Source of the DNA: Nitrospirota bacterium | GTDB lineage: Bacteria > Nitrospirota > 9FT-COMBO-42-15 > HDB-SIOI813 | Direction: 5' to 3' | Assembly (NCBI GenBank): GCA_020851375.1 | Contig: JADZCV010000044.1 | Coordinates: 192,285 to 256,284 of the forward strand | DNA: 64,000 nucleotides | Shown here: positions 27,407 to 55,908 of the stretch, piece after piece | Position numbering within the stretch: position 1 is the stretch's first letter | How the letters are laid out: each line of letters begins with the position of its first letter | Made by a program: the position numbers and the translations under genes | Notes under the pieces: model-generated | Database searches by the model: none | Told to the model about the DNA's origin: nothing | Seen by the model: only the letters and a program-made list of their open reading frames with translations

Positions 27407-27586
27407 TGATGGCCACCCATTCCCGTCATTCCTGACATCCCCGTCATTCCCGACATTCCCGACATCCCCGTCATTCCCGACATCCCCGTCATTCCTGACA
27501 TCCCCGTCATTCCTGACATCCCCGTCATTCCCGCGGAAGCGGGAATCCAGATCCCTGCATAAACCCTTCGGCAGTTTCCCGCCTTA
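27407..27586 (-). repeat. repeat copy 5: 18-bp tandem array plus terminal hairpin
   Basis: About 6.5 tandem units of ccccgtcattcc[c/t]gacat between about 27419 and 27540, then cccgcggaagcgggaatccag hairpin. The unit is an expansion of the cgtcattcc arm of the repeat family. Confidence 0.85.
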
Positions 27587-42353: not shown

Positions 42354-44237
42354 TTATTTCACACCCTTCTTTAGCCCATAGGCACGCCTGAGATTGTTTT
42401 CCGCCTCTGCAAAACCAGGCTTCACACTCAAGGCAGTCCTGAATTCTGCGATTGCATCGTCTATACGGCCCTGATTGGCATATATGATCCCTATGTTATT
42501 ATATGCCTCGGCAGAATCAGGCTTCAGTCTGATCGTTGTCCTGAATTCTTCTTGGGCCTTGTCCGGATGTCCCTTCCTGAGCCAGGCAAGACCAAGATTA
42601 AAGTGGGCCCAGGCAAGCCCAGGATTCAGGTTTATGGCAGTTGTAAATTCCTCAATCGCCCTGGCCGTATCCCCTTTGGCTGAATAGGCAAGTCCAAGGT
42701 TTAGGTGGCTCAGTGCAACTTCAGGTTTCAGTCTTAAGGCAGTCTTATACTCCTCTATCGCCTCGTCTATCCTGCCCTGACTATAGTAAACAAGCGCCAG
42801 GTTATTATGGACGCTTGCTATCCCTGGTTTGAGCCTTATGGCAGTCCTGTATTCCCTGACCGCCTCCTCTGCCAGCCCCTGGTTAAATGAGGCATACGCA
42901 AGGTTCGAGTGCGTCCTTGCCTTAAGCGGGCTCTTACTCACAACATCCCTCCAGAGGGTTACGTGATCTTTCCAGACACGGTTTCTCTGATAAGAAGCCA
43001 CTGAAAGTGGCAGCACTGTAACCACAGCAAGTATCAGTACGGCAATCCGCAGAGACACCCGGCTGCCTGATTGTCTTCTCCAATAATCAATCCCATAAAT
43101 CATCGCCGAACAAAAGGCAGACGATGCCCCGGCAAACGGCAGATAGAGCCTGTGCTCGAAGATCACATCCCTGATGGGAATGACGCCCGACTCCACAGAC
43201 AGGGTGATAAAAAACCAGAATATCCCGAAAGAGCTCAGCAGGAGATAACCGTTCCTGCCTTTACGTGACCGGATAAAAAGCCAGACCGCAAGCCCAAAGA
43301 TGGCCAGGAGAAACATAAAAGACAAAAAGACCCCTGGTGCAGCAAAGGAGTGTAATACCGGGTAGTCGTAATCGAGATTCTGCCTTACCGGAAGCACCAG
43401 CAGCCTGATGTAGGTCACAATGACCCTGAACTGTGTCATCAGATAATCACCCCGTGAGATGCTCTCCGTCTCCTGGGCAGCATCTCTCACCTCTCCCACA
43501 ATATCCCCAATAGGCTTATCCGTATCCAGATTTATGAAGACTAATGGAATGATAGACAGGGTCAGGAGGAAGGGGATCAGAAAAAACGGCCTCTTCCACC
43601 TGTTTCCAAAAAAGAAAAACTCGTAAAGGAGGATAATAAAAGGGAGGGTAATGCTGATCTCCTTTGTCCTCATGGCAAGGACAGCAGCAAGTATTGAAAA
43701 GACATAATATATGCCCCTGAACCTGCTGCCTGGCTCAAGCGACTGCAGCCTCCACTTTGCAAAAAGCGCTACAGAAAGGAGATAAAACAGAGTTGCAAGG
43801 GAGGTATACCTCTGGACTATATAGGTCACAGCCTGTGTCTGTACAGGGTGGGCTACAAAGAGGAGGGCTGCTATCAGTGCAATGAACCCGCCGGATTGCT
43901 GCAGGCTGCCGGAGCCGCCCCCCATCCCCGGAGACCTGAATGTCAGGGTGATAAGCCACCATACGAGGATACCGTTTATAATGTGGATGACGATATTAAC
44001 CAGGTGATAGCCGGTAACGTTCAGTCCCCCAAAATAGTAGTTTAGGGCAAAAGAGAGTGTCCCTATGAAGCGTACCCCTTCTAAATCAGAAAATTTTGAG
44101 AGTTCTCTTATCTTCTGATATTCAATAATCTCAAAGTTGTCATCGAAGTGGAATGGGGATGAGAGGGTATTTGAATAGATTAAAACGGCTGATAGCGCAA
44201 TGAAGATTACAGGAATGACAAAACGGTATCTTGTCAA
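42354..44237 (-). CDS. TMTC-like protein: N-terminal polytopic membrane domain (DUF1736/PMT-like) fused to C-terminal TPR repeats
   Basis: About 10 TM segments with first-loop SSPFHFDDNFEI acidic motif; C-terminal 6 TPRs (LGLAYSAKGDTARAIEEF..., AEAYNNIGIIYANQGRIDDAIAEF...). Confidence 0.7.
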   Translation of the reverse strand: MTRYRFVIPVIFIALSAVLIYSNTLSSPFHFDDNFEIIEYQKIRELSKFSDLEGVRFIGTLSFALNYYFGGLNVTGYHLVNIVIHIINGILVWWLITLTFRSPGMGGGSGSLQQSGGFIALIAALLFVAHPVQTQAVTYIVQRYTSLATLFYLLSVALFAKWRLQSLEPGSRFRGIYYVFSILAAVLAMRTKEISITLPFIILLYEFFFFGNRWKRPFFLIPFLLTLSIIPLVFINLDTDKPIGDIVGEVRDAAQETESISRGDYLMTQFRVIVTYIRLLVLPVRQNLDYDYPVLHSFAAPGVFLSFMFLLAIFGLAVWLFIRSRKGRNGYLLLSSFGIFWFFITLSVESGVIPIRDVIFEHRLYLPFAGASSAFCSAMIYGIDYWRRQSGSRVSLRIAVLILAVVTVLPLSVASYQRNRVWKDHVTLWRDVVSKSPLKARTHSNLAYASFNQGLAEEAVREYRTAIRLKPGIASVHNNLALVYYSQGRIDEAIEEYKTALRLKPEVALSHLNLGLAYSAKGDTARAIEEFTTAINLNPGLAWAHFNLGLAWLRKGHPDKAQEEFRTTIRLKPDSAEAYNNIGIIYANQGRIDDAIAEFRTALSVKPGFAEAENNLRRAYGLKKGVK

Positions 44238-45913
44238 TTAGCCCCCCCTGAGTCCCCGTTATTGTAATTAATTTTATACAACACAAGAAGGTATTCCTCA
44301 GGGTCTTCTTTGGAGCTTATCCAGAAGACCTTCTCCATTTCAGGCACATTGACACCCTGATCCAGTAAAAATGACAACTCTGGCCGGAGCGCTACGGTGT
44401 TCCTGTCCACGCTTAAGATATCAACATGCCTGTTTTTTGCAAATTTCAATATCTCCTGATATTCTCCGTAAGGCAACACAACCCAGTCAGCGCCTGCATA
44501 CCAGGGGACAAAAGGGGACCTCGCCATTATAGTTGCATTATCTGGACCCCGTTTTATCACACGTTTTTTAATTTCTGTCCCTGCCAATTCAGATAATTCG
44601 GTCTTATGCTTTAAGGCAGCCAGGGTATGTTTTGTATTGATCAGACCCTTTTTATTACTCATCAAAATAAATCCAAGACACAAAAAAGATATAATCATTC
44701 CTGCATGTCTTAATCTGACTTTCTCTGCAAGATGACATATCTTGCATATCCCTCCTACTGCCCATACACCCAGGACCGGAATCAGGGGAACAAGGTATCT
44801 TTCCGGTCCAATAGCGCCGGTAAAGCCCCCTGCAAGGCTATAGAAAAGTATATATAAGATTACGTAGACACCGGGAAACAGTATAGCCCAGGCAGCGCCA
44901 TCACCCCCCCCTTTCCAATAAAATGCCGCTGCCACGAGGCCTATGAAGACAAAGACCAAAAACACTGTCCCCAGTATAAGGTGAATGGATTTCGCAATCT
45001 CTGTCCAATTGATTGCAACTCTCTTTAAAATAAAATCTGAGTGTCTTAAAACGTCCCCTATGGAGACGGGGGTTTTCATATCGTCAACAAAGGCATAACC
45101 TGTGCCGTCTTGATTGATCCTGCCCAGGAACCACTCACGTTCCATGTCATCCCGTAAATCAGGCATCATCAACTGACGGGTGATACTGTGTGCTGGCAGG
45201 CCGGAGACATTTCTTAGATCAAGGGACATGATCATTTTTAAAGGTCCTGCAATCAATAAAATTCCGAGGATCAGGAGCGCTGCATTCCTGATTATATTTG
45301 AAACCGGCTGCCTGTTAAACCATCTGTCCGCTATCACCCAGCAGATTGAGATAAAAGGGATGATAATACCAACATCACGCGTCATCCATGCAGCCCCGCT
45401 GAGCATCCCTGCAGCACACCACATCCACGGTATTTTACTCTTCAGTGCGCTATAGGTGACAAATATGCTGGCAAGGAAAATCAGGGTAAACAATGCCTCG
45501 GTTAATGGAAGTGATGAATATAATAGATAATATGGGTTTAGAATAGTTACAGGTACAATAAACCATGCAACCCTTTCTCTATAAAAACATCTTGTCAGAA
45601 AAAATACCGGGATCACAAGAAGTGTTGACGCTGCAATAGATACTATAGTCCCTGCCCTTTCAAAGCCTGTGAAAAACCACTCTGAAATTGCCACTATCAA
45701 TGGATATAGCGGGGGGGCGGTGTATGCACCTCTTAACCAGTGATCAATATGCCAATGGCCTTTCTGAATCTCCTGGGCCATCCTTAAGTACATGGTAGCA
45801 TCCGTCATACTGATGCGCCAGGGGCTGAGATATGCCACAAGAATAGCTGTACACAACATTAAAATACCTGTGGGTAGAAAAACTGAAAGGAGCTTAGATG
45901 ACTTGTCCCTCAT
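44234..45913 (-). CDS. ArnT/PMT-family (COG1807-like) GT-C membrane glycosyltransferase
   Basis: 559 aa, about 11 TM segments with large loops; general architecture of dolichyl/undecaprenyl-phosphate-sugar dependent GT-C enzymes. 4-nt overlaps with both flanking TMTC-like genes. Confidence 0.5.
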   Translation of the reverse strand: MRDKSSKLLSVFLPTGILMLCTAILVAYLSPWRISMTDATMYLRMAQEIQKGHWHIDHWLRGAYTAPPLYPLIVAISEWFFTGFERAGTIVSIAASTLLVIPVFFLTRCFYRERVAWFIVPVTILNPYYLLYSSLPLTEALFTLIFLASIFVTYSALKSKIPWMWCAAGMLSGAAWMTRDVGIIIPFISICWVIADRWFNRQPVSNIIRNAALLILGILLIAGPLKMIMSLDLRNVSGLPAHSITRQLMMPDLRDDMEREWFLGRINQDGTGYAFVDDMKTPVSIGDVLRHSDFILKRVAINWTEIAKSIHLILGTVFLVFVFIGLVAAAFYWKGGGDGAAWAILFPGVYVILYILFYSLAGGFTGAIGPERYLVPLIPVLGVWAVGGICKICHLAEKVRLRHAGMIISFLCLGFILMSNKKGLINTKHTLAALKHKTELSELAGTEIKKRVIKRGPDNATIMARSPFVPWYAGADWVVLPYGEYQEILKFAKNRHVDILSVDRNTVALRPELSFLLDQGVNVPEMEKVFWISSKEDPEEYLLVLYKINYNNGDSGGAN

Positions 45914-47649
45914 TTCTTCTTTTCCCCGGTACTATCCAGGAGGGCCTGAAGACGCACCCTCGTTTCCGCATGTGAGGGGTCCAGGGCAGCGGCATTCTGA
46001 TAGGCACGAATCGCCTCCTCGAACCTCCCCTCCTTCGTGTAGAGCACTCCCAGGTTAAAGAATGGCAGGTAGTTGTTGCTGTGACGCTGTATTGCCTTCA
46101 TAAAGATCTCTTCTGCAAGCCCCGGCCTGTTCTGTTCATAGTATATGATCCCGAGGTCATTATATATCTGCAGATTACCCGGATTGCCTTTAAGCAGATC
46201 TTCCAGTTCAGTGGCCGCAAGGTCCAGTTTCCCCTGGACTATATATATCTGGGCAAGGTTGTGTCTCGCTGTCAGACTCTCCTGTCCATCATGGATCGAG
46301 ATACTTGTGCGCAATGACTCAATGGCCTGATCATACATCTTCATGTCTTTGTATGCAATCCCAAGTCCTGCATGTGCGATGGATGAACCCGGGGCCTTTT
46401 TTACTGTATCTGTCCAGAGGGTCAGGTCATCCCTCCACTCCGTGTTCCGTATAATGGTCACTGCAGAATATGCTGCGCAAAGGGCAATCAAGAGAAACAG
46501 GGCAGCGGCCCGGGACACAGAACTACTCAATTTATCCAGGACAACACCTGCAAACACTGCCATAGTTATTATTGCCAGATATCCCCTGTGCTCCTGCAGT
46601 ATCAGGTTAAGGGGGATAACTGTCGTAGGCAGAAGCACGATAAAAAACCAGAACATGAAGAATGAAACAACCCGCCAGGACGCTGTGGATGACCGGAAAA
46701 GAAGCAGGGCAACTGCAGTATAGACAGAAAGCACAACTGCAGAAAAGATGACTGGAATCGTGACAGTCCTGTAGACCTCCATGTCGTGGACCAGGGTTAA
46801 TGGTATGGGGACAATAAACATCTGCAGATATTTAACAAGTGCAGGAAGTTCCGTAAAAAACTGGGTTACCGGATCCCTCTTAAATGAGTGAGGCGCCCCG
46901 CTGAAGGCAACCCCCCAGACATAGAGATAGGGTATGACCACAATAAGGATAAATGGAAGGTAGGGGGTATATTTGCGCCAGTCCTTTAAGTGGCGCTGTG
47001 CAGGGGTGCGTCGTTCCCGGAGGAGGTATACGTCATATAGCCATAATACGAGGGGAAGGGTGACGGCAGACTCCTTGCTCAGCATCCCTGCTGCAAAGGA
47101 AAGCAGGGATGCAATATAAAAAAAAAGGTTTAGATCCCTCCGGAACCTGACCCAGCAATAAAAGGCAGACAGATAGAAGAAACCGCTCATGACGCTGGAG
47201 CGCGTTGATATGTAATTTACGATCTCTGAGTTGAAGGGGTGGACGAGAAAGATGATGCCTGCTGACAGGGCCGCAAAAAAGGCCGGGGTGGTGAATATGG
47301 CCCGGACTATCAGAAAGAGCAGAAAGGCTGACCCGGCATGAAAGGCGAGGTTGACTATGTGGTATCCTGCAGGGTTTAGACCATTTACCCGGAAATTCAG
47401 TGCATAGGTCAACATCAGGAGGGGCCTGTACGGAGAGCCCCTTTTCATCCCCTCATTGCTGAATGTGGAGGGATCGGAAAAAAGGGAAGATAGCCCGGAC
47501 AGGTCCCGTATACCGGGATTCATGGTGATATGGTGGGCATCATCGTAGTGAAATGGATTGTGTATCGAGTTGTAGTAGAGCAGTCCTGCGATCAGTACAA
47601 AGGAAAGGAAGGTAGTGCAGACTATAACCCGGTTACTGTAACGACTCAT
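45910..47649 (-). CDS. TMTC-like protein (membrane domain + TPR), paralog 2
   Basis: First-loop HNPFHYDDAHHI motif, LVHPFNSEIVNYISTRSSVMSGFFYL block shared with the paralog at 62353, C-terminal TPRs (LGIAYKDMKMYDQAIESL...). Confidence 0.7.
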   Translation of the reverse strand: MSRYSNRVIVCTTFLSFVLIAGLLYYNSIHNPFHYDDAHHITMNPGIRDLSGLSSLFSDPSTFSNEGMKRGSPYRPLLMLTYALNFRVNGLNPAGYHIVNLAFHAGSAFLLFLIVRAIFTTPAFFAALSAGIIFLVHPFNSEIVNYISTRSSVMSGFFYLSAFYCWVRFRRDLNLFFYIASLLSFAAGMLSKESAVTLPLVLWLYDVYLLRERRTPAQRHLKDWRKYTPYLPFILIVVIPYLYVWGVAFSGAPHSFKRDPVTQFFTELPALVKYLQMFIVPIPLTLVHDMEVYRTVTIPVIFSAVVLSVYTAVALLLFRSSTASWRVVSFFMFWFFIVLLPTTVIPLNLILQEHRGYLAIITMAVFAGVVLDKLSSSVSRAAALFLLIALCAAYSAVTIIRNTEWRDDLTLWTDTVKKAPGSSIAHAGLGIAYKDMKMYDQAIESLRTSISIHDGQESLTARHNLAQIYIVQGKLDLAATELEDLLKGNPGNLQIYNDLGIIYYEQNRPGLAEEIFMKAIQRHSNNYLPFFNLGVLYTKEGRFEEAIRAYQNAAALDPSHAETRVRLQALLDSTGEKKK

Positions 47650-48443
47650 GGAGACTTAGCGCACCGGAAGCCCTGATCATAAGTAGTATGCCAGTCAAGC
47701 CCTCTCGTAGCAAGAGAGGACTCAATTGCATAACGGGAAGACGTTCGGGCATAACGATACAGGGGGGTCACGTACGACCCTCCACGCACTGACCTGTAAT
47801 TTCCACTGTAATATCCGTCCGGCAATGTATTTCCAGGATAGGCCTCATACCACCCGCCAGTCCACTCCCGCACATTACCGGTCATGTCATAGACTCCATA
47901 GGGGCTGACATCTTCAGGATAACTTCCAACAGGCGCACTCCATTTTCTACCTGACTCGAGGGTATTTGCCTTCCCTGCAGCATACTCATCCCCCCAGGAC
48001 CAGAGCCTGCCGTCCGTTCCACGGGCTGCCTTCTCCCACTCCGCCTCTAATGGGAGCCGCTTGCCAACCCATGTGCAATAGGCATCTGCATCCATCCAAT
48101 CTACATCAACGACCGGATGGTCATGCTCACCCTTTTCAAAGGTTCCCATCTCAGCCCAGGGAGCCGGGCGGTATACATTGTTTGTTTTAATTAGAAATTC
48201 ATAAAACTGGGCATTGGTGACCTCGTAACGGTCTATGTAAAAATCCTTTACATAAACCCTGTGCCTGGGGATTTCATCCACTCCTATCGTCATACCAAGC
48301 CGTCCTTCAGTTCCGCTGCTCCCCATCTCAAACCATCCAGCCGGTACAAAGACCATATTCTCCGGAGGTGAATTGCCGCGCATATTATACTGATGACTGC
48401 AGCCAAACAGTAGGGTTGCTAAAAGAAAGAGCACAGGAAGCAT
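47646..48443 (-). CDS. FGE-sulfatase (SUMF1/formylglycine-generating enzyme) domain lipoprotein, paralog A
   Basis: Lipobox MLPVLFLLATLLFGC at chosen start 48443 (the track start is 48614). Domain motifs RVYVKDFYIDRYEVTN, YCTWVGKRLPLEAEWEKAARGTDGRLWSWGDE, GVYDMTGNVREWT, RGGSY. Confidence 0.75.
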   Translation of the reverse strand: MLPVLFLLATLLFGCSHQYNMRGNSPPENMVFVPAGWFEMGSSGTEGRLGMTIGVDEIPRHRVYVKDFYIDRYEVTNAQFYEFLIKTNNVYRPAPWAEMGTFEKGEHDHPVVDVDWMDADAYCTWVGKRLPLEAEWEKAARGTDGRLWSWGDEYAAGKANTLESGRKWSAPVGSYPEDVSPYGVYDMTGNVREWTGGWYEAYPGNTLPDGYYSGNYRSVRGGSYVTPLYRYARTSSRYAIESSLATRGLDWHTTYDQGFRCAKSP

Positions 48444-48471
48444 CTTTTGTCTCCTTTCACCGGGAATATCA

Positions 48472-49302
48472 TCATAGACCATCCACAGCACACCGGAATC
48501 CGTGGGCCGGGTGGTCCCACTTTGGGGCAACTGCATGCCTGTAGGCACTCCTCGCAAAGGGCACGGACGGGTTCTCCCATGACCCGCCGCGTAAAACCTT
48601 GTATTTCTCACCAAATGCCTCCCTTTGAAGGGTACTGCCTGGATACGGCTTATACCATGATGATGTCCACTCCATCACACTCCCGGCCATATCGTAAATC
48701 CCGTAAGGGCTCACACCCTCAGGATAACTTCCGGCCGGTGTTGTCCAACCTGCTCGGGCCTCTCTCGTATTTGCCATTATCTTTCCTTCCGGACCAAAAA
48801 AATCATTTCCCCAGGGCCATTGACGGCCATCGGTTCCCCTTGCGGCCTTTTCCCACTCCTCTTCTGTCGGGAGCCTCTTACCAGCCCAACGGCAATAAGA
48901 ATCCGCATCATACCAGGATACGCCCTTCATCGGGTGAGTATCTTCCGGTTCAGGATAAACATTAATATATGACTCAATTGTCCATATCCTCGGGGCCTTT
49001 CTACCCGTGACATCCAAAAACCTCCTGTATTTCTCAACCGTAACCTCGAAACGGTCCATATAAAACCCATTCACATAGACACTGTGCTGAGGGATTTCAT
49101 CTACCCCCACTGATTGGCCAGGGATGCCATCATCTTCCCTGCTGCCCATAAGAAACCACCCTTCAGGTATATACACCATATCCGTGGTGTCTGGAACCGG
49201 TTTCACGCTGCTCACGGTATGAATGCACCCCGCAAGTAAGAGGACCGTCGTAAGACACACTGCAACCCGGCAGTTATTAATGAGCCCTGTCATCTTCCGC
49301 AC
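48472..49302 (-). CDS. FGE-sulfatase domain lipoprotein, paralog B
   Basis: Lipobox VCLTTVLLLAGC. Motifs YMDRFEVTVEKYRRF, YCRWAGKRLPTEEEWEKAARGTDGRQWPWGND, GIYDMAGSVMEWT, RGGSW. Confidence 0.75.
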   Translation of the reverse strand: MRKMTGLINNCRVAVCLTTVLLLAGCIHTVSSVKPVPDTTDMVYIPEGWFLMGSREDDGIPGQSVGVDEIPQHSVYVNGFYMDRFEVTVEKYRRFLDVTGRKAPRIWTIESYINVYPEPEDTHPMKGVSWYDADSYCRWAGKRLPTEEEWEKAARGTDGRQWPWGNDFFGPEGKIMANTREARAGWTTPAGSYPEGVSPYGIYDMAGSVMEWTSSWYKPYPGSTLQREAFGEKYKVLRGGSWENPSVPFARSAYRHAVAPKWDHPAHGFRCAVDGL

Positions 49303-50134
49303 AACGAAAACCTATTCCCCTGTGCCTGTAATCAGGCTTGAAGGTATTGGCCCGGTATGCTGCCCTGCTGTATGGCATGGCCGGCATAACTAACGACCCG
49401 CCCCGTGTGACTTTGTATGTCTCTCCAAAGGAATCCCTCTTAAGGGTGCTCCCAGGGTAGGGGAGGTACCAGGAGCTGGTCCATTCGCTCACATTACCGC
49501 ACATATCATAAACTCCATAAGGGCTTACGTCATCGCTGACACTTCCCGGAGGAAGGATCTGTCCCGGGCCTGCATACCGGGTGTTGCAGGTATGTCCTCT
49601 AAGATCACTCCCCCAGGGCCATTGGCGGCCGTCTGTGCCCCTTGCAGCCTTTTCCCACTCCTCTTCTGCAGGGAGCCTCTTTCCAGCCCAACGGCAGTAG
49701 GCATCCGCATCGTACCAGGTTATATTCGAGACAGGGATGTCTTCAGTTCCTTCTGGCGGGGTGTTGCCTTTCCACGAAGATGCCCCGGGATGTTTATCAT
49801 CAGGCGCTGAATGGCCGGTCGCATCAATGAAGGCCTTGTACTGACGGTTAGTCACCTCGTACCTGTCAATATAAAATGCCTTCAGATATACTGACCGCTG
49901 GGGAATCTCATCCACCCCCACGGACTGGCCCACCAACCCATCCTTCTCAGTGCTACCCATGATGAACTCTCCTGCAGGTACATGCGCCATCTGTTCCTCA
50001 GTCACCGTCTGACCGGCAGATGATGCAGTCACGACCATTCCTGCCAGGAAAACCTGCACTAATAAAAACAATGCGCCTGCCTGCTTCACCTGATTTTCAT
50101 CTGCCTTTGTGAGCCCTGGCTCATGACGGTTCAC
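49277..50134 (-). CDS. FGE-sulfatase domain protein, paralog C (signal-anchor N-terminus)
   Basis: YIDRYEVTNRQYKAF, YCRWAGKRLPAEEEWEKAARGTDGRQWPWGSD, GVYDMCGNVSEWT, RGGS. GTG start at 50134; the first roughly 10 codons lie inside the repeat's module C. Confidence 0.75.
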   Translation of the reverse strand: MNRHEPGLTKADENQVKQAGALFLLVQVFLAGMVVTASSAGQTVTEEQMAHVPAGEFIMGSTEKDGLVGQSVGVDEIPQRSVYLKAFYIDRYEVTNRQYKAFIDATGHSAPDDKHPGASSWKGNTPPEGTEDIPVSNITWYDADAYCRWAGKRLPAEEEWEKAARGTDGRQWPWGSDLRGHTCNTRYAGPGQILPPGSVSDDVSPYGVYDMCGNVSEWTSSWYLPYPGSTLKRDSFGETYKVTRGGSLVMPAMPYSRAAYRANTFKPDYRHRGIGFRCAEDDRAH

Positions 50135-50332
50135 CTGAAAACGCTCCTATTCTCCCGTCATTCCCACGGAACCTGTCCCCGCAGGATTTTTCACCCCGTC
50201 ATTCCCACGCAAGTGGGAATCCAGAACCAGGCCCACGGTCTGGATTCCCGCTTACGCGGGAATGACGTTTTCATGAACCCTGGTGAGCCCCGAGCTCATG
50301 ACGGTTCATCCAAAAATGCTCATGTGTAGCTG
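50103..50332 (-). repeat. composite palindromic repeat, copy 7 (module C inside the CDS N-terminus, leader, hairpin, core, second module C)
   Basis: gtgagccctggctcatgacggttcac + ctgaaaacgctcctattctcccgtcattcccacggaacctgtccccgcaggat... cgtcattcccacgcaagtgggaatccagaaccaggcccacggtctggattcccgcttacgcgggaatgacg ... gtgagccccgagctcatgacggttcat. Confidence 0.85.
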
Positions 50333-53023
50333 TCATTGCGTTACCTCTCCTGCAGTACCGGCGCACCAGTCAGGCCTGTTTGGCACATTGGCCGATGGCT
50401 TGTAGTGACACGTTGACATCGTGATGTTATGACACCTTAAATCACACCGGAAGCGGTTAAGATCGTCATCGCCCTCCAGGTACCATCTCGGTCTCAAGTC
50501 CGTGCCTCCTGTGACCAGCTCAGGGGCAAAATTGATCAGGTGGGTCGAAACAACCCCGTCAATCATACCATCCTCTTCATCAGGCGGCAGACACCCCGGA
50601 GGATCGGTCATTGGGTTTCCTCCCGGATTTCCCGGGGAACCAGCTCCGCAGTTCGGGTAGATCCTGCCTCTTCCGTCTCCATAAACCGTATTTTTCGCCT
50701 CTATGTTACTGTGAACATTATTGTGGCACTCATGACAATAAGAGCCCCCCAGCAATAAGTGATACATGTGAAGATTGATATCCCACGTGGTTTGAATACT
50801 TTGGGGGTTCCCGAAGAAGTTCGTCCACGAGGAATCACCTCCGTTCGCCCCTGCTGCAGTGGGGTCAAATGCCCTCCGGTCGTGACATTGAAAGCATAAG
50901 AGGAAGTTATCATAATAGGAGCTGCTCTGCCCGTCATTGATAAAGTCTCTGTTCGGATTCCGGATATCAGTGTTGTAGTTATTTCTCAGGATGCGCGGAT
51001 ATAATGAACCATGAGGTCCCTGGGGTTTCGTTGGATCGAAGTTTGTAAGTTCACTAATGTTAGACGCTGAATCCGTTATCCTGCGGTATGATGTCCCATC
51101 AGGAAGACCAGTTACAGGTCCTTTGATATCTCCAATTCCTGTAACATTGTTGTTGTGGCAATCGGTACACTGGATGGTAATGTTTCTGAGCGCCCCTGCC
51201 GGGTCGGCATCGCAACTCCCGTTCGTCCCTCCGGGATTGAAACGCGACGCAATGTTAAAGGCAACAGAAAGCTGATTACAAAGCTGGCCTGTACCATTCC
51301 TGCCAGGCGCTGCTACAGGGTGATAGGAAGGATTTCTTGCCTGCCTGGTATGATTTTCATCTATATCCTGACTGTTAGGATCAAACTCCTTTCGCTTATT
51401 GCTATACCCCCTGAAACTCAAATTTGCATCCGTTGGCATTACATCCCTGGGGTCTGACCGGAAAATGGTCTCTTCAGGATAGCGGTTGCCTATAAACAGG
51501 TTTGTATAGCTGTTCCCGTGACACCGGAGACAGACCTCATAGACATAAGGCTCGCGGCTGTTTCCCGGTATCTTTGCACCAACCACATTTCCGTTAATAT
51601 CTATCCCCTTCATCCCTTTAAGCCTGTTGGTCTTTGTCGCCTGATGGGGGTTATGGCAATCCACACATTCGACATGTACGGTATCCATGAGGGTTGTGCC
51701 AGGCGGATATTCATTAAAGAGAGGAGGTGCAAAACTCCACAGTTCCACACCTTCCTGCGGTCTGGCAACAAATACAGGCTCATGTCCCTGCCCCATCGTC
51801 AGGTTCATAGCACTCCCCCTGCCGCCCCTTCCGATATTTTTGTCTTTATAGAATTCGCTCCTTATGTCCGGAGGCGGATTCGCGGGATTTCCCATCTCAG
51901 ATGCCGGCCTGTGACAAAGATAACATGTATTCTCTATGGCAAGATTATTGTTGAAATCAACCCCCTCCCGAAGGAGCCGCTTGGCACCCTGTGCCGTATG
52001 GGGATCATGGCAGGCACGGCATGCGTACTTGCCCACAGTGTGAGTGCCGTCAAAGTTATATGGATTCGCTGCTGAAGGACTTGCCGTTGGTACAAACACA
52101 TCTGTATCATGTGTACTCCCGTTCCAGCCCGGCTTATCGTGGCAGTAAAGACAGATAATCTTCCCTCTTGCAGGGTCCTCAGGCTCATTGAAGTAGTTGG
52201 CCCGCAGGAACTTTGGAAAAGTTACAGCATGCGGGTTATGGCATGAGGTGCACTGTACTGAATCGTAGAGATTTGGCACACTGCCCGGATATCTCCGCAT
52301 GGGTGAAATTGGGGTAGTATCACTCACCTTTTGAGGCGGAACAAGCGGCGGACCCGGGTCCACGAGTTCTTCATCCCTTGCAGCAAGCAGACTATCATAT
52401 ACAAACGATACCGGATGGTCGTTTTGGAGGTTCGTACCTATGACCCTCGTGTCCGCTGATGTTACCCCTGAGCCGGACGGCATTGTCCCCGCGCCTCCTG
52501 CAGGGGTCTGCCCGGTTGGATAGATCATATCAAACGGCGATAAGGATGTCCCTGACCCAGGCGCATTGACAACCGTGCCCAGTGCTATTGTCCCGTCATG
52601 ACATGAAAGGCACAGTCTTGAGTATCCAGTAGGTGCATTCGGTTTTGGTTTGGTCTCATAACCCTCAAAGCTTGTGCTCCATACCTGGTCGTAGAGGATA
52701 TAACGTGCTGTAGAAAGCCTTCTGTTCCATATGGGGGCGCTCAATCCTGCAGCCTCTTCATCACCAACAGCGCCATGCGGCGTGTGACAGAATACACATA
52801 TCTCTGTTGTCTGTGTTGTAAACACAGCCCGGTCCGCCGGTCCTATTGATGAGAGGTTGTGCTTTGTGTTCCGAATGTCTTCAAGCACGGATGGGACTAA
52901 CGGTATCGGTGCAGGTGGCAGTGCCGGCGGCTGGGAATGTCCCCTTTCCTCCTGCCAGAAAAAAATGGCAAGAAAGATTAATACACCTATGAATGTAACC
53001 GGCAGCAGAATTTTTTTAAACAT
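50333..53023 (-). CDS. multiheme c-type cytochrome (11 CxxCH plus one CxxxCH), N-terminal signal/anchor
   Basis: CVFCH, CLSCH, CTSCH, CLYCH, CRACH, CYLCH, CVDCH, CLRCH, CTDCH, CFQCH, CHECH and CDLRCH; N-terminal MFKKILLPVTFIGVLIFLAIFF hydrophobic segment; 896 aa. Confidence 0.85.
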   Translation of the reverse strand: MFKKILLPVTFIGVLIFLAIFFWQEERGHSQPPALPPAPIPLVPSVLEDIRNTKHNLSSIGPADRAVFTTQTTEICVFCHTPHGAVGDEEAAGLSAPIWNRRLSTARYILYDQVWSTSFEGYETKPKPNAPTGYSRLCLSCHDGTIALGTVVNAPGSGTSLSPFDMIYPTGQTPAGGAGTMPSGSGVTSADTRVIGTNLQNDHPVSFVYDSLLAARDEELVDPGPPLVPPQKVSDTTPISPMRRYPGSVPNLYDSVQCTSCHNPHAVTFPKFLRANYFNEPEDPARGKIICLYCHDKPGWNGSTHDTDVFVPTASPSAANPYNFDGTHTVGKYACRACHDPHTAQGAKRLLREGVDFNNNLAIENTCYLCHRPASEMGNPANPPPDIRSEFYKDKNIGRGGRGSAMNLTMGQGHEPVFVARPQEGVELWSFAPPLFNEYPPGTTLMDTVHVECVDCHNPHQATKTNRLKGMKGIDINGNVVGAKIPGNSREPYVYEVCLRCHGNSYTNLFIGNRYPEETIFRSDPRDVMPTDANLSFRGYSNKRKEFDPNSQDIDENHTRQARNPSYHPVAAPGRNGTGQLCNQLSVAFNIASRFNPGGTNGSCDADPAGALRNITIQCTDCHNNNVTGIGDIKGPVTGLPDGTSYRRITDSASNISELTNFDPTKPQGPHGSLYPRILRNNYNTDIRNPNRDFINDGQSSSYYDNFLLCFQCHDRRAFDPTAAGANGGDSSWTNFFGNPQSIQTTWDINLHMYHLLLGGSYCHECHNNVHSNIEAKNTVYGDGRGRIYPNCGAGSPGNPGGNPMTDPPGCLPPDEEDGMIDGVVSTHLINFAPELVTGGTDLRPRWYLEGDDDLNRFRCDLRCHNITMSTCHYKPSANVPNRPDWCAGTAGEVTQ

Positions 53024-53102
53024 TGAATTATTATATATATAATTTAAAACCTGTCAACGGAATCTGCCCTGATTCATAAAGACAGCCATAGGGCGACTCA
53101 GG

Positions 53103-53846
53103 TTACCACAGTCCGGATCGTTTCAGCCTGTACAGTCTGAATACAACCAGAGGTGAAAACAGAGACAACAGCCCGGCAACAGCGCCTCCGGAAGTGGTTG
53201 GGCGGCTGCCCTGAGTCATGATAGTCCCGCATCCCAGCCCGCTTCCACTGCCAGAGCCTGAGTTAACTGACGATTCCTTTGATAACACTAACTGAAACAA
53301 CCTTGGATCTTTACCGGCCGATATATAGGAATAGCCGGAGTCCCGCGTAATATCTGCCAGCGCCATCTCCTGGCCGGCCCCGGCTCTATGAACATCCTTC
53401 AGGAGAAGGACCTCACCAGGTTTTAACTGACCCGGCAGGACATTCCAGCTCAGATCAACCTTTTTACCTGCAGGCACAGAATCTACGGTAATCTCCCATG
53501 AACTATCCCCGTTAGTTGATGTCCCTCTTATATCCTTCCATAGATATTTTGCCGCATCTGCAGCCCCATCCCTGCCCCGGATATAAGCCCTCAACAGCAC
53601 AGGATTCTCAGAATCATTGGCAGGATCAGACAGGGAAATCAGTGCAGGTGTATCCCAGAGGTTGTCAAAATCATCTGTAGCGCCCTGCTCTATGCCTACT
53701 ATCAGCTTGTTGTACAGCCTCGTATTGTCCCCGCCGGTTGTGGAAATCTCAATCGGCACCTTCCACGCGAAGGCAGATGTCAGGAATATACATTGCAGGA
53801 AAAAAATAAAAAAAGATATTGTGGATCTGCTAATCACTTTGCTCAT
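53103..53846 (-). CDS. secreted protein with C-terminal sorting-signal-like tail (Gly/Ser-rich linker, hydrophobic helix, basic end)
   Basis: Signal peptide MSKVISRSTISFFIFFLQCIFLTSAFA (start 53846; the track start is 53891). C-terminus GSGSGSGLGCGT...SGGAVAGLLSLFSPLVVFRLYRLKRSGLW. Confidence 0.6.
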   Translation of the reverse strand: MSKVISRSTISFFIFFLQCIFLTSAFAWKVPIEISTTGGDNTRLYNKLIVGIEQGATDDFDNLWDTPALISLSDPANDSENPVLLRAYIRGRDGAADAAKYLWKDIRGTSTNGDSSWEITVDSVPAGKKVDLSWNVLPGQLKPGEVLLLKDVHRAGAGQEMALADITRDSGYSYISAGKDPRLFQLVLSKESSVNSGSGSGSGLGCGTIMTQGSRPTTSGGAVAGLLSLFSPLVVFRLYRLKRSGLW

Positions 53847-53847
53847 C

Positions 53848-55908
53848 TTATTCCGGCCTCCTGAATACAATCTCCAGACCATCTCCGCCATTTACATATA
53901 ACCAGTACCCTGTCCAGGGCTCAAACGCTGCCGGCGGGTCGTCATTAAAAGAGGTGAAATCATAGTTACCGTCTTTTAGATAGTAAAGGGTATTTCCTGC
54001 CAGACCGTTCTTTATCGCCTCTGTAAATGGCTTCTCCTCTCCGGTTGAGTGATCTCTCACAACGACGTCTTTCATCAGAATCCTGTGTTCATATGGTGTT
54101 CCGACCATATTCCATCCTGTCTGTAACTCCATGCCATATTCCGGACTTTCAATCCTTACCCCATCAATAAACAGGTTGATGCCATCAACAGGGGAATAGA
54201 GGAAATATCCAAGTCCCGGAGATACCGAATCCTCTGAATAATACTGCGGAGGTGTGAGCCCGGGGTAGGCGGAATACCACCGGTATAATGCAACATCAGG
54301 ACCCACACTCGGTGCAAACAGGGATACCGCGTCATTCGGTACAGGCAGCAGAGGGAGGGATATGAGATTGTATCCCTTTCTAAGCGTAAGCGGTGATGTC
54401 AGTTTCACAAAACCTGATGTGCCTGCTGCATAGGACTGAGACGACAACGGAAACATTACGATGTTTGACACCGGAGACACGTGCCCTGACGAATCCACGC
54501 TCTTTATAGCGATGCAGTAGGTCCTGCCAGCCTCAAGCCCTGTCATCGTGTAGGTCTGCAACACCCCTTTCTGGGGTCTCTGTTCCCCTGTCACTTCAAT
54601 AGCCCTGTCCCACTCCCCATCAGCCAATACTGAGGATGCGGAACATTCCAGGTAGCGCAGGTCATACAGGGCTGCAGTGCCGGACATGCCGTCGTCTGAC
54701 GGCGCTGACCACATCAACAGTACTGAGGTATCTGTTACATAGAACCCCTGCAGGTCGCGGATCGCATCCGGTGGAAGGCTGTCGTCCGGCTCTGTCACTG
54801 AGATCCTGATCCTTCTTGAGGCGGTTGCCCCGTTCACATCCCTGATACCAGCAACAAATTCATATATACCCGGAACAATCAAATCCCCTGACAATACTCC
54901 CGTACTGCTGTCTAATGTTACCCCCTCAGGAAGGTTGCCTATAATGCTCCATACGATGGGCTTACTCCCTCCTGTGACTGAAATCCGGCCGGTGTATGCC
55001 TCTCCGGCAACTCCGTCAGGAAGCATGGCAGCGTCAATCTCAGGTATTGAATTGATATTGAGCGTATAGTCCCGCGAGCGGCTGTATCCATTTACAGTAT
55101 CATCCCCGATAATTACAAATCTGTATAAACCGGTTGCTGAGGGTGCGCCGGTAATTTCTCCAGTCTCCGGATTTAAAGTCATACCAGGCGGAAGCATCCC
55201 CTCTGAAAGTCTCCACACAGCGGTTCCACCAACTGCCGATAACTTCTCATTATAGAAGTTGTCCATTGTTCCATCAGGTAGATAGGGAGGGGTGATGAAA
55301 AGTCCTTTCGCCATCATCCTTATCTCAAAATCCCGGATCCCATACTTTTTACCTGATTCAACCGGGATGTTGTTGGTATAGAGATAACGGGATGAGCTCC
55401 TCATGTCTATAATGTTTGCCGGATTAGAAAGGTCAACAAGTAATATATCCATTTGAGCAGGCTTGTTTTCGAAATTCCAGTTCAGTGTGACAGTCCCTCC
55501 GTTCACTGTGGAGATGATACGGAATGTCCAGACTTTACTTTCGCCAAATGGCCTGATATCACGCCAGAGGGAACACTCCTGGTCCGTATAGCCTTCACCC
55601 GGATTGCTGCACGTCCAGTTAACCAGCTTGCCATACTTATCCCTGTATTCACTGAGGGTGCCATGGGTAAACATGGCCTGAACAGGGTCATCTGCTCCGG
55701 CCATGGAGAGGGTATCCCAGGAGCTGTCAAAGCCATCTGTTGCCCCTTCCATAGTCCCTGCAATAAGGTGATTCCAGACCGTACCATCGCTACCCCTCGA
55801 ATCAGGAACTGATACCTTTACATGCACAGACCAGTCCGTCTCTGCCGCATAGACAGCGGATACGAAGCTAACCAGGATCATGATTGTAATCAGTAATCGT
55901 TTTAGCAA
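53848..55908 (-). CDS. secreted cell-surface protein with putative Ig-like (cadherin/He_PIG-type) and fibronectin type III domains and a conserved C-terminal domain
   Basis: Signal peptide MLKRLLITIMILVSFVSAVYA; LPPGMTLNPETGEITGAPSATGLYRF (putative Ig domain motif); FN3 LLMWSAPSDDGMSGTAALYDLRY; C-terminal domain shared with the 1779-aa protein. Confidence 0.65.
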   Translation of the reverse strand: MLKRLLITIMILVSFVSAVYAAETDWSVHVKVSVPDSRGSDGTVWNHLIAGTMEGATDGFDSSWDTLSMAGADDPVQAMFTHGTLSEYRDKYGKLVNWTCSNPGEGYTDQECSLWRDIRPFGESKVWTFRIISTVNGGTVTLNWNFENKPAQMDILLVDLSNPANIIDMRSSSRYLYTNNIPVESGKKYGIRDFEIRMMAKGLFITPPYLPDGTMDNFYNEKLSAVGGTAVWRLSEGMLPPGMTLNPETGEITGAPSATGLYRFVIIGDDTVNGYSRSRDYTLNINSIPEIDAAMLPDGVAGEAYTGRISVTGGSKPIVWSIIGNLPEGVTLDSSTGVLSGDLIVPGIYEFVAGIRDVNGATASRRIRISVTEPDDSLPPDAIRDLQGFYVTDTSVLLMWSAPSDDGMSGTAALYDLRYLECSASSVLADGEWDRAIEVTGEQRPQKGVLQTYTMTGLEAGRTYCIAIKSVDSSGHVSPVSNIVMFPLSSQSYAAGTSGFVKLTSPLTLRKGYNLISLPLLPVPNDAVSLFAPSVGPDVALYRWYSAYPGLTPPQYYSEDSVSPGLGYFLYSPVDGINLFIDGVRIESPEYGMELQTGWNMVGTPYEHRILMKDVVVRDHSTGEEKPFTEAIKNGLAGNTLYYLKDGNYDFTSFNDDPPAAFEPWTGYWLYVNGGDGLEIVFRRPE

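Follow-up and report, generated by a model that had tools for sequence, protein, structure and literature searches.

FGE-fold proteins without the catalytic copper cysteines encoded beside an OmcE-like 12-heme cytochrome in Nitrospirota

In the window analysed here, a stretch of 64,000 nucleotides from a Nitrospirota bacterium, a 12-heme c-type cytochrome gene is followed by three genes for FGE-fold proteins, F1 to F3. Genes of this kind lack the codons for the catalytic cysteines and in Nitrospirota lie almost always right after an OmcE-related cytochrome; their products are therefore probably helper or anchor proteins of that cytochrome. The more specific reading, that F1 to F3 are non-catalytic adaptor or scaffold partners of the OmcE-like cytochrome, is given about an even chance of being correct.

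Results

Organization of the locus

The features of the locus are listed in Table 1. All genes lie on the minus strand, so the FGE-like trio is downstream (3') of the cytochrome; a preliminary description had placed it upstream, which is wrong by transcription and applies only in plus-strand coordinates.

Table 1. Coordinates of the features in the window
Feature	Position	Strand	Remarks
Glycosylation island	548-41314	-	Pfam scans
Three polytopic membrane proteins	42354-47649	-	579 and 627 aa, TPR-tailed; 559 aa, weak GT-C/PMT_2 similarity
F3	47646-48443	-	265 aa from ATG; FGE-fold lipoprotein, lipobox LLFGC; PF03781
F2	48472-49302	-	276 aa; FGE-fold lipoprotein, lipobox LLLAGC; PF03781
F1	49277-50134	-	285 aa; FGE-fold; signal or anchor, no lipobox; position-1 orthogroup; PF03781
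Repeated palindromic element	50130-50296	.	Intergenic, between cytochrome and F1
12-heme c-type cytochrome	50333-53023	-	896 aa; N-terminal hydrophobic signal or anchor, then Pro-rich linker
OmcE-like tetraheme domain	52136-52885	-	Cytochrome residues 47-296; phmmer vs PDB
Sigma-70-type promoter-like site	53030-53057	-	TTGACA, 16 nt, TATAAT; just 5' of cytochrome start codon
Three secreted proteins	53103-61502	-	262 aa; 686 aa (He_PIG, fn3); 1779 aa (fn3); Pfam

The promoter-like site agrees with the consensus at 12 of 12 positions, is the sole perfect match within 45500-56500, and may function as a promoter. The gap of 198 nt between the cytochrome gene and F1 holds the palindromic element and folds at -93.4 kcal/mol (z -6.7). 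The element gave no match in Rfam, is 91% identical to positions 19453-19619, and its 88-nt core occurs in six intergenic copies. This very stable hairpin could partly uncouple transcription of the cytochrome and F1. The first 26 nt of F2 lie within the end of F1, the stop of F3 overlaps the start of the following gene by 4 nt, and the genes of the membrane-protein set after F3 likewise have end overlaps of 4 nt. Together with the sigma-70 consensus, these overlaps are regarded as operon signals.

The membrane proteins of 579 and 627 aa matched TPR families in Pfam. The 559-aa protein reached 24.8 bits with PMT_2 (cut-off 26.1) and 24.3 bits with DUF2079 (cut-off 28.2), both under the curated cut-offs. 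These three proteins are translationally coupled to F3 and form the start of the glycosylation island. The island encodes a GT-C/PMT_2 protein, a MarR/HTH regulator, methyltransferases, a flippase, DegT aminotransferases, GT1-, GT2- and GT4-type glycosyltransferases, NeuB, a CMP-sugar transferase, a GDP-mannose dehydratase and an ABC-2 exporter, and the glycosylation genes after the trio amount to about 47 kb. The whole locus is read as an OmcE-like cytochrome together with a protein-glycosylation island. The three secreted proteins share one blastp similarity cluster (c5), whose conservation 5' of the cytochrome is confined to the window's clade (the window, L003, L004, L006, L009, L010 and L084). 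Neither the island nor the OmcE-type N-terminal domain of the cytochrome had been noticed in the preliminary description.

The cytochrome

The number of hemes, previously given as 11 to 12, was settled by a count of 11 CXXCH motifs and one CX3CH motif, and all 12 motifs were invariant in five orthologs of 55-76% identity. The Pfam matches were Paired_CXXCH_1 and Cytochrome_C7. More than 4700 homologs were found; the closest were all from Nitrospirota MAGs and were named hypothetical or 'cytochrome c3 family', and none of the 120 best was a cytochrome-FGE fusion. A phmmer search against the PDB matched 7tfs (E 1.1e-18) from residue 23 to residue 231 of the 232-residue chain, and all four CXXCH motifs were in register; a profile of the orthologs gave E 1.7e-21 for this domain, and 9yuq was matched as well (E 4e-12). 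Entry 7tfs, labelled only 'Cytochrome c' in the search table, is Geobacter OmcE. Residues 47-296 of the cytochrome form a full-length homolog of this Geobacter nanowire subunit.

The FGE-like proteins and their missing copper site

The three tandem paralogs with an FGE-sulfatase domain were recovered as described before: PF03781 matched F1 (E 7.6e-54), F2 (8.9e-57) and F3 (3.4e-51) over its entire 255 positions, and the signature motifs RLP.E.EWEKAARGTDGR.W.WG, YDM.G.V.EWT and RGGS were all found in the trio. Pairwise identities of 55.7% (F1/F2), 47.0% (F1/F3) and 46.8% (F2/F3) were higher than the 35-45% estimated by eye. The longest ORF of F3 spans 47646-48614 (322 aa); its most likely start is the ATG at 48443, preceded at 7 nt by an AAGGAG ribosome-binding site. 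The lipoboxes of F2 and F3 and the hydrophobic N-terminus of F1, without a lipobox cysteine, were confirmed and agree with the extracytoplasmic location proposed for the trio. This pattern of signals by gene position is kept in the orthologs. F1 is identical to a protein (P0048) that bears the NCBI name 'SUMF1/EgtB/PvdO family nonheme iron enzyme [Nitrospirae bacterium]'. In Foldseek, the AlphaFold2 model of F2 (pLDDT 93.5) had CalU17, EgtB, FGEs, ToxD and pFGE as top matches, with about 29-30% identity in structure alignments with human and bacterial FGEs.

When human SUMF1 was aligned with F2, C336 was replaced by N, C341 by P and C346 by S, and the segment from RGGS to GFRC contains no cysteine in either F1 or F3. 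The CxxxxC pair was absent from all 35 cytochrome-linked relatives; as a positive control, it was present in 11 of 93 background FGE-like ORFs. The pair equivalent to the human structural disulfide C218-C365 was kept. Because the copper-binding pair is replaced, F1 to F3 cannot be real FGEs, and the copper-dependent oxidase option of the preliminary description, which needs the ligands C336 and C341, is not supported. That description took loss of the pair as a sign of non-enzymatic scaffolds; the replacement seen here points to a non-FGE role, and the view that the trio does not mature sulfatases is supported. The missing pair makes a non-enzymatic scaffold more likely, although other chemistry, such as that of PvdO, would be compatible with it.

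The absence of a sulfatase from the window was upheld by Pfam scans of all coding-strand ORFs of at least 150 aa, and a six-frame scan of the window gave no match to either PROSITE sulfatase signature. The looser pattern C/S-x-P/A-x-R had three matches in the window, all spurious (two span stop codons, and the third lies outside any sulfatase).

Linkage and orthogroups

In 17 of 18 informative Nitrospirota loci the next gene 3' of the cytochrome was FGE-like, with one to three copies present, and each of the eight FGE homologs sampled, at 49-71% identity to F2, directly followed a cytochrome of about 690-1100 aa. In relatives the two genes lie at most 35 nt apart and overlap by up to 34 nt. 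At none of 54 control loci, whose generic FGE-like genes share 35-48% identity with F2, did an ORF have three or more CXXCH motifs. The linkage is tight, specific and lineage-wide in Nitrospirota, and the functional tie to the multiheme cytochrome suspected in the preliminary description is stronger than could be known from one window. Two differing neighbourhoods harbour the pair, which moves between them as a unit: giant surface proteins and TPR/GT-C genes mark the first, and small cytochromes, NHL beta-propellers, a PPIase and a protein of about 630 aa the second. More distant cytochrome homologs in Myxococcota, Proteobacteria, Calditrichota and Methylomirabilia had no adjacent FGE-like gene; the cytochrome family in general can therefore do without this partnership. 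Nor is a fixed heterotrimer universal, since L009, L010 and L084 (closely related cytochromes, 61-66% identical) have a single divergent FGE-like copy each.

The position-1 copies group in a single orthogroup, the lipoprotein copies in others. The C-terminal motif is P-D-Y-R-H-R-G-I-G-F-R-C in the F1 orthogroup and P-x-W-D-H-P-x-x-G-F-R-C in that of F2, while that of F3 has an insertion with the motif D-W-H-T-x-Y-D-x-G-F-R-C. The RHR, WDHP and DWH-x-YD loops were absent from the 93 background FGE-like ORFs. Each loop sits where the FGE active site would be, and its histidine, often accompanied by Asp or Arg, is invariant within the orthogroup. Such loops would suit a binding surface but equally a metal or catalytic site. 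The three copies are old orthogroups, that is, subfunctionalised paralogs from an old triplication.

Discussion

We infer that F1 to F3 are non-catalytic, C-type-lectin-like extracytoplasmic proteins, one Sec-exported or anchored and two lipoproteins, dedicated to the cytochrome. The C-terminal loop of each paralog, on the active-site or ligand face of an FGE, would bind the cytochrome, its glycans or another member of the trio. Jointly the three may make up an adaptor or scaffold, tethered to the membrane, by which the cytochrome is positioned, assembled or stabilised, either in the periplasm or at the outer membrane. Non-catalytic FGE folds that work through protein binding or assembly have precedents in the Tsi3 T6SS immunity proteins (bioRxiv 10.1101/2021.05.21.445229) and the PorK lipoprotein ring of the T9SS (PDB 9mzu; PMC12365241). 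Human pFGE/SUMF2 is a further one.

The strong PF03781 matches and the identity of F2 to known FGEs might suggest ordinary aerobic formylglycine-generating enzymes whose substrates are Cys-type sulfatases from other parts of the genome. Both catalytic cysteines are, however, substituted in F1 to F3 and in 35 of 35 linked relatives, the window has no sulfatase, and the genes track the cytochrome and not sulfatases, which leaves this explanation extremely improbable; for F1 to F3 the missing pair refutes a conventional FGE identity. FGE and C-type-lectin folds, for example Treponema TvpA, are common targets of diversity-generating retroelements. TvpA (PDB 2y3c) was a distant sequence match (E 5e-8), and the paralogs diverge most in the C-terminal loop, where variable regions lie. 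Nevertheless, Pfam scans of the window revealed no reverse transcriptase, there was no template-repeat-like copy (the repeats in the trio, families D6, D10 and D13, are ordinary paralogy in the conserved core), and the loops stay conserved inside each orthogroup even between distant genomes, the opposite of hypervariability. A role as variable target proteins is thus effectively refuted and has virtually no probability.

PvdO shares the FGE fold but lacks the Cys pair; it is periplasmic and needed for dihydropyoverdine oxidation (NCBIfam NF051459, 'dihydropyoverdine dehydrogenase'). That F1 to F3 are redox enzymes of this type, exchanging electrons with the adjacent cytochrome and acting on small organics (a catechol, quinone or humic compound) or modifying a cytochrome residue, is unlikely. 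The strict linkage to an electron-transfer protein, the invariant His loop at the active-site position in each orthogroup and matches of all three paralogs to NF051459 over nearly the full length agree with it, but these matches scored 62-73 bits where the cut-off is 500, no motif for cofactor binding was recognised, and neither neighbourhood type has conserved substrate-related genes beside the pair. Three differing loops also speak against one common catalytic site, and PvdO activity has never been reconstituted in vitro. The FGE fold is itself C-type-lectin-like, and it is conceivable, with a rather low probability, that the trio are lectin-like modules for glycans of a glycosylated cytochrome or envelope, or aids to the adjacent TPR/GT-C machinery. 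The coupling of F3 to TPR/GT-C-like genes with some 47 kb of glycosylation genes behind them, the glycosylation clusters at Geobacter omcE loci and a TPR-FGE fusion encoded in L090 favour this. In loci of the second neighbourhood type (L008, L012-L015, L019-L023 and L089), however, the FGE-like genes come after the cytochrome, and glycosyltransferase and TPR genes are missing from the vicinity. The constant partner is therefore the cytochrome and not the glycosylation genes. A small chance is left to metal-binding proteins or chaperones that present Cu, Fe or Mn to the cytochrome or mature a metalloprotein; a similar role was suggested for NirV, encoded beside copper nitrite reductase. Conserved His, Asp and Arg in the loops would suit them, as would relatives in lineages proposed as metal oxidisers, such as the Manganitrophaceae MAG L020, porin-dodecaheme cytochrome complexes being proposed routes of Mn(II) oxidation in that family (PMC9040806). 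But the Cu(I) Cys pair, the known metal site of the fold, is gone, a single histidine per loop makes no metal site, Pfam scans of the window gave no nirK or other cuproenzyme gene, the FGE-like copy of L020 is split into two short ORFs, and NirV itself is without an established function.

The second neighbourhood type of the cytochrome-FGE pair is similar to the Geobacter omcE cluster, and the island in the window has the same composition as glycosylation clusters that were described downstream of Geobacter omcE (bioRxiv 10.1101/2025.10.22.684050). Filament formation by this OmcE-domain protein of about 900 aa is putative.

The FGE-like genes and their products

All substantial open reading frames of the 64-kb window were found on the minus strand. 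Three consecutive ones, F1, F2 and F3, encode proteins that each match Pfam family PF03781 (FGE-sulfatase) from end to end, in keeping with the signature blocks noted in the preliminary description. The start codon of F3 is most likely the ATG at 48443, which has an AAGGAG site 7 nt before it and gives a product of 265 aa; the three proteins thus comprise 265-285 aa and consist, according to Pfam, of the FGE domain alone. F1 and F2 overlap by 26 nt, and 4 nt are shared by the end of F3 and the start of the next gene. Pairwise identities were 55.7% for F1 and F2, 47.0% for F1 and F3, and 46.8% for F2 and F3, so that the earlier estimate of 35-45% was too low. Lipoboxes are present in F2 (LLLAGC) and F3 (LLFGC), while F1 begins with a hydrophobic signal or anchor that has no lipobox cysteine, a distribution that agrees with the one described before. 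The statement that the three genes lie upstream of a multiheme cytochrome is true in plus-strand coordinates only. Read along the minus strand, which encodes all of these genes, the cytochrome comes first and the FGE-like genes lie on its 3' side.

Features of the window on the numbering of the forward strand
Feature	Position	Strand	Remarks
Cytochrome	50333-53023	-	896 aa; 11 CXXCH and one CX3CH
F1	49277-50134	-	285 aa; PF03781, E 7.6e-54
F2	48472-49302	-	276 aa; PF03781, E 8.9e-57
F3	47646-48614 (as listed ORF)	-	322 aa; PF03781, E 3.4e-51
Promoter-like site of sigma-70 type	53030-53057	-	TTGACA, 16 nt, TATAAT
262-aa protein	53103-53891	-	N-terminal signal; no Pfam or NCBIfam match
Repeats inside 1779-aa gene	59762-60234		149 nt, 75% identical, 324 nt apart
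Repeats inside 1779-aa gene	60292-61074		282 nt, 77% identical, 501 nt apart
TPR-tailed polytopic membrane proteins	45910-47649, 62353-63945	-	paralogous
NeuB (nonulosonic acid synthase) and CMP-sugar cytidylyltransferase	14175-14879 and 20308-21435	-
DegT gene	26285-27406
Array of 9-nt units	27400-27551		12 units, head to tail
Palindromic element, 88 nt	14925-15012, 18567-18654, 19517-19604, 25457-25544, 27916-28003, 50194-50281		six copies
Longer palindromic copies	19453-19619, 50130-50296		91% identical over 167 nt

The AlphaFold2 model of F2 had a pLDDT of 93.5. Its best structural matches in Foldseek were CalU17, EgtB, bacterial and human FGEs, ToxD and the human paralog pFGE, and the FGE structures were matched at an E value of about 1e-19. 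The FGE fold of F1-F3 is certain, and no known sub-family fits. An NCBI protein with a sequence identical to that of F1 (P0048, of a Nitrospirae MAG) already carries the name "SUMF1/EgtB/PvdO family nonheme iron enzyme", and the three proteins are ordinary members of this known superfamily. Among 8000 scored candidates, more than 7700 were relatives at E <=1e-20. The closest relatives of F2 came from Nitrospirae/Nitrospiria MAGs, and F2 and F1 were also encoded on contigs of 1-1.4 kb of SRR11294021, SRR11294022 and SRR11294035.

Absence of the catalytic cysteines and comparison with characterized families

Conservation of the Cu-binding cysteines of human SUMF1, which the preliminary description had raised, was not found. 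In the phmmer alignment of F2 to PDB 2aft, C336, C341 and C346 are replaced by N, P and S, and neither F1 nor F3 contains a cysteine between RGGS and GFRC. A canonical FGE role is ruled out because this cysteine pair is missing, which upholds the earlier view that the proteins are not sulfatase-maturation enzymes. The lack of a sulfatase in the window was likewise borne out, both by a Pfam search of every coding-strand ORF with 150 aa or more and by PROSITE sulfatase signatures in six frames. The CxxxxC pair was present in none of 35 cytochrome-linked relatives, whereas the same regular expression detected it in 11 of 93 unrelated metagenome FGE-like ORFs, which served as the control that the test works. 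The two cysteines that are invariant among the paralogs align with those of the human "AYCTW" and "GFRCA" motifs, which form the structural disulfide C218-C365. The retained pair fits an exported protein.

The scores of F1-F3 for the NCBIfam equivalogs EgtB, SenA, OvoA, PvdO, GldK and GldJ were all far below the cut-offs. The N-terminal DinB_2 domain of EgtB, OvoA and SenA is lacking, and the models TIGR03440 (102-130 against a cut-off of 360) and SenA (84-111 against 420) were matched over their C-terminal part only. For PvdO, the dihydropyoverdine dehydrogenase, NF051459 gave 62-73 bits against a cut-off of 500, and no pvd genes were found in the window. With the PorK/GldK and GldJ models (TIGR03525, TIGR03524, TIGR03530), 69-106 was obtained for GldK against 350, and 24-36 for GldJ against 383-458; the window contains no T9SS genes (porL, porM, porN context), and the host phylum is Nitrospirota, not Bacteroidota. 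A variable protein of a diversity-generating retroelement was also rejected, because the C-terminal loops are conserved within orthogroups and because no reverse transcriptase (Pfam, any ORF) and no template-like repeat occur in the window. DNA repeats among the three genes reflect plain paralogy.

The cytochrome and its OmcE-like domain

The number of 11 or 12 hemes given previously for the cytochrome was confirmed by counting the motifs, of which one is CX3CH, and orthologs as little as 55% identical retain all 12. Residues 47-296 matched chain residues 23-231 of 232 of PDB 7tfs, the Geobacter sulfurreducens OmcE nanowire, at an E value of 1.1e-18, and the four heme motifs of the domain all align in register. 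When a profile built from five orthologs was used, the E value was 1.7e-21. PDB 9yuq matched the N-terminal domain at 4e-12. This entry of 16 chains is labelled 'Putative multiheme cytochrome c' and probably represents the OmcE bundle of Desulfuromonas soudanensis described in bioRxiv 10.1101/2025.10.22.684050. The cytochrome thus contains an OmcE-homologous tetraheme domain.

Right before the start codon of the cytochrome is a predicted promoter with a perfect sigma-70 consensus, the sole 12/12 match in the 11-kb region scanned.

Linkage of the cytochrome to FGE-like genes

For all eight sampled relatives of F2 (49-71% identical), the preceding genes are FGE-like copies or a multiheme cytochrome gene, and the FGE-like set directly follows this cytochrome, which has about 690-1100 aa, with distances ranging from a 35-nt spacer to a 34-nt overlap. 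These contexts contained two or three FGE-like copies, or four in locus L090 if a TPR-FGE fusion is counted. The linkage was also determined from the side of the cytochrome by an alignment scan of GTDB species genomes, which yielded 80 loci whose ORFs were searched with an HMM for FGE-like genes. Of the Nitrospirota loci, 18 reach beyond the 3' end of the cytochrome gene, and in 17 of them one to three such genes come next. Only L017 departs from this; it carries a second cytochrome paralog, and the other copy of the same MAG (L011) has FGE-like genes. Among the more distant homologs from Myxococcota, Proteobacteria, Calditrichota, Methylomirabilia and other phyla, almost none had an adjacent FGE-like gene; the only matches were a weak one on the same strand about 1 kb downstream (L059) and one on the opposite strand about 7 kb away (L031). 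The control set consisted of 54 metagenome loci, each at least 4 kb long, with generic FGE-like genes 35-48% identical to F2; these genes are distant relatives among the matches listed by the metagenome FGE-alignment scan, not orthologs, and none of the loci contained an ORF with at least three CXXCH motifs. The functional tie to a multiheme cytochrome that had been suggested before is strengthened by these three counts, and the gene linkage is both specific and phylum-wide.

Clustering of the ORFs of 21 loci revealed two neighbourhood layouts. In Type A (the window, L003, L004, L006, L009, L010 and L084), three secreted proteins of about 1800-2000, 690 and 250 aa, which have fn3 and He_PIG domains and fall into one blastp similarity cluster, are followed by the cytochrome, the FGE-like genes and TPR/GT-C genes. 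In Type B (L008, L011-L015, L019, L020, L022, L023 and L032), the order is small cytochrome, NHL beta-propeller, small cytochrome, SurA-like PPIase, a putative beta-barrel protein of about 630 aa, NHL beta-propeller and large cytochrome. The FGE-like genes come after the large cytochrome except in L032, which has a single copy 5' of it. The candidate omcE-type companions of these related loci were recovered as clusters c1, c2 (NHL), c3 (the putative barrel) and c4 (PPIase), and Type B resembles the Geobacter omcE cluster. The pairing of a large cytochrome with one or more FGE-like genes is the sole one kept in both layouts. No fusion of the two was detected among the best 120 cytochrome homologs; the only fusion seen was the TPR-FGE protein of L090.

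Some of the loci deserve separate mention. L090 (8001-15280, from a Nitrospirota MAG) has a larger and rearranged FGE-like set, in the order cytochrome, FGE, a 1022-aa protein without Pfam match, FGE, FGE, the TPR-FGE fusion of 553 aa and an NHL protein. In L020 (12880-13733, Candidatus Manganitrophaceae) the single FGE-like gene, which follows the large cytochrome, is split into two short ORFs of 121 and 151 aa (50 and 170 bits), which may be due to a frameshift or indicate a pseudogene. The cytochrome of L009 (CAYHWX010000017.1), 66% identical to that of the window, is labelled 'uncultured Vicingus sp.' (Bacteroidota), and loci L031/L038 (JBHHWA01...) are labelled 'Thermoplasmata archaeon'; because of their gene content these are probably mis-binned contigs and not true hosts.

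Paralog groups and loop motifs

In a neighbour-joining tree the position-1 copies from distant genomes grouped together, the lipoprotein copies formed other groups, and single-copy lineages branched apart. The type of signal tracks the gene position, with a signal or anchor at position 1 and lipoboxes at positions 2 and 3. Each group has its own conserved loop directly before the terminal GFRC, at the position of the FGE active-site segment. This loop is P-[DE]-x-R-H-R in position-1 proteins and P-x-W-D-H-P in the F2 type, and in the F3 type it is an insertion with D-W-H-[ST]-x-Y-D. The three motifs were found in 21 of 35 cytochrome-linked proteins, compared with 0 of 93 background FGE-like ORFs. 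F1-F3 are therefore ancient, subfunctionalised paralogs. Some position-1 proteins have an additional, co-varying pair of cysteines (C183 and C212 in F1), which probably forms a disulfide.

Neighbouring genes and repeated elements

Downstream of F3, Pfam identified TPR-tailed polytopic proteins and PMT_2 (GT-C)-like proteins, followed by a glycosylation island with a MarR/HTH regulator, many methyltransferases, a flippase, an ABC-2 exporter, two DegT aminotransferases, glycosyltransferases of groups 1, 2 and 4, NeuB, a CMP-sugar transferase and a GDP-mannose dehydratase. The presence of NeuB and the CMP-sugar cytidylyltransferase suggests that the glycan produced by the island contains a sugar similar to sialic acid. 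Two paralogous TPR-tailed membrane proteins, with DNA stretches 70-81% identical, flank the block of surface-protein, cytochrome and FGE-like genes.

Towards its C-terminus the 262-aa protein has a Gly/Ser-rich linker, a cysteine (GLGCG) and a hydrophobic helix, and it terminates with the basic tail RLYRLKRSGLW. This arrangement resembles a C-terminal sorting signal of the MYXO-CTERM or GlyGly-CTERM type. It falls into one blastp similarity cluster with a 686-aa He_PIG protein and the 1779-aa fn3 protein. The DNA repeats inside the gene of the latter correspond to duplicated N-terminal domains of this giant surface protein.

The gap of 198 nt between the cytochrome and F1 holds a copy of an 88-nt palindromic element (GTCATTCCCACGGAAGTGGGAATCCAGA ... 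TCTGGATTCCCGCTTACGCGGGAATGACG), all six copies of which are in intergenic gaps and are 66-97% identical to the reference copy. The copy in this gap can form a long hairpin (-93 kcal/mol, z -6.7). No Rfam match was obtained in 45000-56500, the element included, and it looks like a REP- or MITE-like element. The 9-nt unit (CATTCCCGA / CATCCCCGT) of the tandem array directly 5' of the DegT gene has the arm sequence GTCATTCCCG in common with the palindromic element.

Possible functions of the FGE-like proteins

F1-F3 are exported proteins of the FGE fold without the FGE catalytic site. We favour a model in which the specialised loops would bind the cytochrome, its glycans or one another, so that the three proteins would act as membrane-tethered adaptors or scaffolds. 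PorK of the T9SS, the Tsi3 immunity proteins and human pFGE are precedents for a use of the fold that is not catalytic. We give this mechanism about an even chance; it is weak mainly because no fusions were found and because binding is something we infer. A PvdO-like redox enzyme coupled to the cytochrome is kept alive as an option by the invariant histidine in each loop, but is considered unlikely. The same histidines leave room for metal binding by F1-F3, which we regard as distinctly improbable. They might also be thought to complete the heme coordination of the cytochrome, an idea that is not favoured because the orthologs have 17 invariant non-motif histidines for 12 hemes, so that by count no loop histidine is needed. 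A lectin-like or glycosylation-associated role is doubtful and is given only a small chance.

Compared with the adaptor or scaffold model, a broader proposal is a long shot: the trio would be an unrecognised component of the giant Nitrospirota OmcE-like cytochromes, either as an assembly or anchoring apparatus or as PvdO-like substrate-oxidising subunits. In the former case the proteins would have a bearing on how cytochrome filaments are built and attached. In the latter case, electrons from extracellular organic or metal substrates would enter the heme wire at a new entry point, and this would be the first defined redox-partner role for the FGE-like family without the cysteine pair, which includes NirV and PvdO.

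FGE-domain proteins without catalytic cysteines are very abundant in bacteria and mostly without a known role, and the linkage to a single partner across a phylum provides a concrete, testable hypothesis of function for one such clade. It also adds an unreported component to the OmcE-like loci for extracellular electron transfer of uncultured Nitrospirota. These bacteria are common in groundwater and sediments and have been implicated in iron, manganese and sulfur cycling. No paper was found that joins FGE-like proteins or sulfatase-modifying factors with multiheme cytochromes, OmcE or Nitrospirota, and FGE-like genes are unmentioned in the Manganitrophaceae paper (PMC9040806) and the MccSep selenoenzyme paper. 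Neither the module of OmcE-like cytochrome and FGE-like proteins nor the three motif-defined orthogroups are described in the literature searched.

Comparison with known systems

With the aerobic FGEs (human SUMF1, Streptomyces coelicolor, Thermomonospora curvata), F1-F3 share the fold, the core motifs RLPTEAEWE, GN.xEWT, RGGS and GFRC, the cysteines of the C218-C365-type disulfide and an extracytoplasmic or secretory location. However, C336 and C341 of SUMF1, the catalytic pair that binds Cu(I), are substituted along with C346, and unlike FGE the trio has no sulfatase partner, is tied to a cytochrome and includes two lipoproteins.

The FGE fold without the cysteine pair is also found in PorK/GldK, Tsi3, pFGE/SUMF2, PvdO, ToxD and CalU17. 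Human pFGE is a case of non-catalytic use of the fold. PorK, which was among the PDB matches of the trio, reportedly forms a lipoprotein ring of the T9SS with a non-catalytic FGE fold; PorK and GldK, both lipoproteins, make up a periplasmic scaffold, and F2 and F3 are lipoproteins by their lipoboxes. ToxD and CalU17 were the best sequence and structure matches, and a literature search on ToxD gave nothing on mechanism. NirV, which is listed among the members of PF03781, is an FGE-domain protein of unknown role that is genetically coupled to the copper nitrite reductase gene nirK, and thus lies beside a periplasmic redox metalloprotein as the trio lies beside a cytochrome. The partner is different, NirK in one case and a multiheme c-type cytochrome in the other, and no nirK was found in the window. 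The immunity proteins Tsi3 of the T6SS act by protein binding, with a non-catalytic FGE fold to which the effector is bound (bioRxiv 10.1101/2021.05.21.445229). Unlike PorK/GldK, Tsi3, PvdO and ToxD, the trio is not set in a T9SS, T6SS, pyoverdine or toxoflavin context. Its RHR, WDHP and DWH loops occur specifically in the clade linked to the cytochrome and are absent from the 93 background FGE-like ORFs.

OmcE of Geobacter and Desulfuromonas is a full-length homolog of the N-terminal 250 residues of the cytochrome. According to bioRxiv 10.1101/2025.10.22.684050, minimal omcE clusters comprise two multiheme cytochromes, two beta-propeller lipoproteins, OmcE and a large beta-barrel, and are followed in Geobacter and Geomonas by 15-70 genes for glycosyltransferases of families 2, 4 and 39, sugar-modifying enzymes, methyltransferases, exporters, TPR proteins and regulators. 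The make-up downstream is the same in the window (GT1, GT2, GT4, PMT_2, methyltransferases, exporter, TPR, regulator). In the passages of the preprint that were searched, the components given for the Geobacter clusters include no FGE-like genes. In related Nitrospirota loci the OmcE-like gene is preceded by a pair of small multiheme cytochromes, by NHL beta-propellers and by the protein of about 630 aa, an arrangement that resembles the Geobacter cluster. The window itself contains none of the companions of minimal omcE clusters (the small multiheme cytochromes, the beta-propeller lipoproteins and the large beta-barrel), and its clade has giant fn3/He_PIG surface proteins in place of the beta-propeller, barrel and small-cytochrome genes. 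The subunits differ in size as well: OmcE has about 230 aa and 4 hemes, compared with 900-1200 aa and 12 heme motifs in Nitrospirota, and a 900-aa subunit with eight extra heme motifs may behave differently from the filament-forming OmcE. The Nitrospirota loci are OmcE-type loci with an added set of FGE-fold accessory proteins, which constitute a new FGE-like clade without the cysteine pair and with a defined partner.
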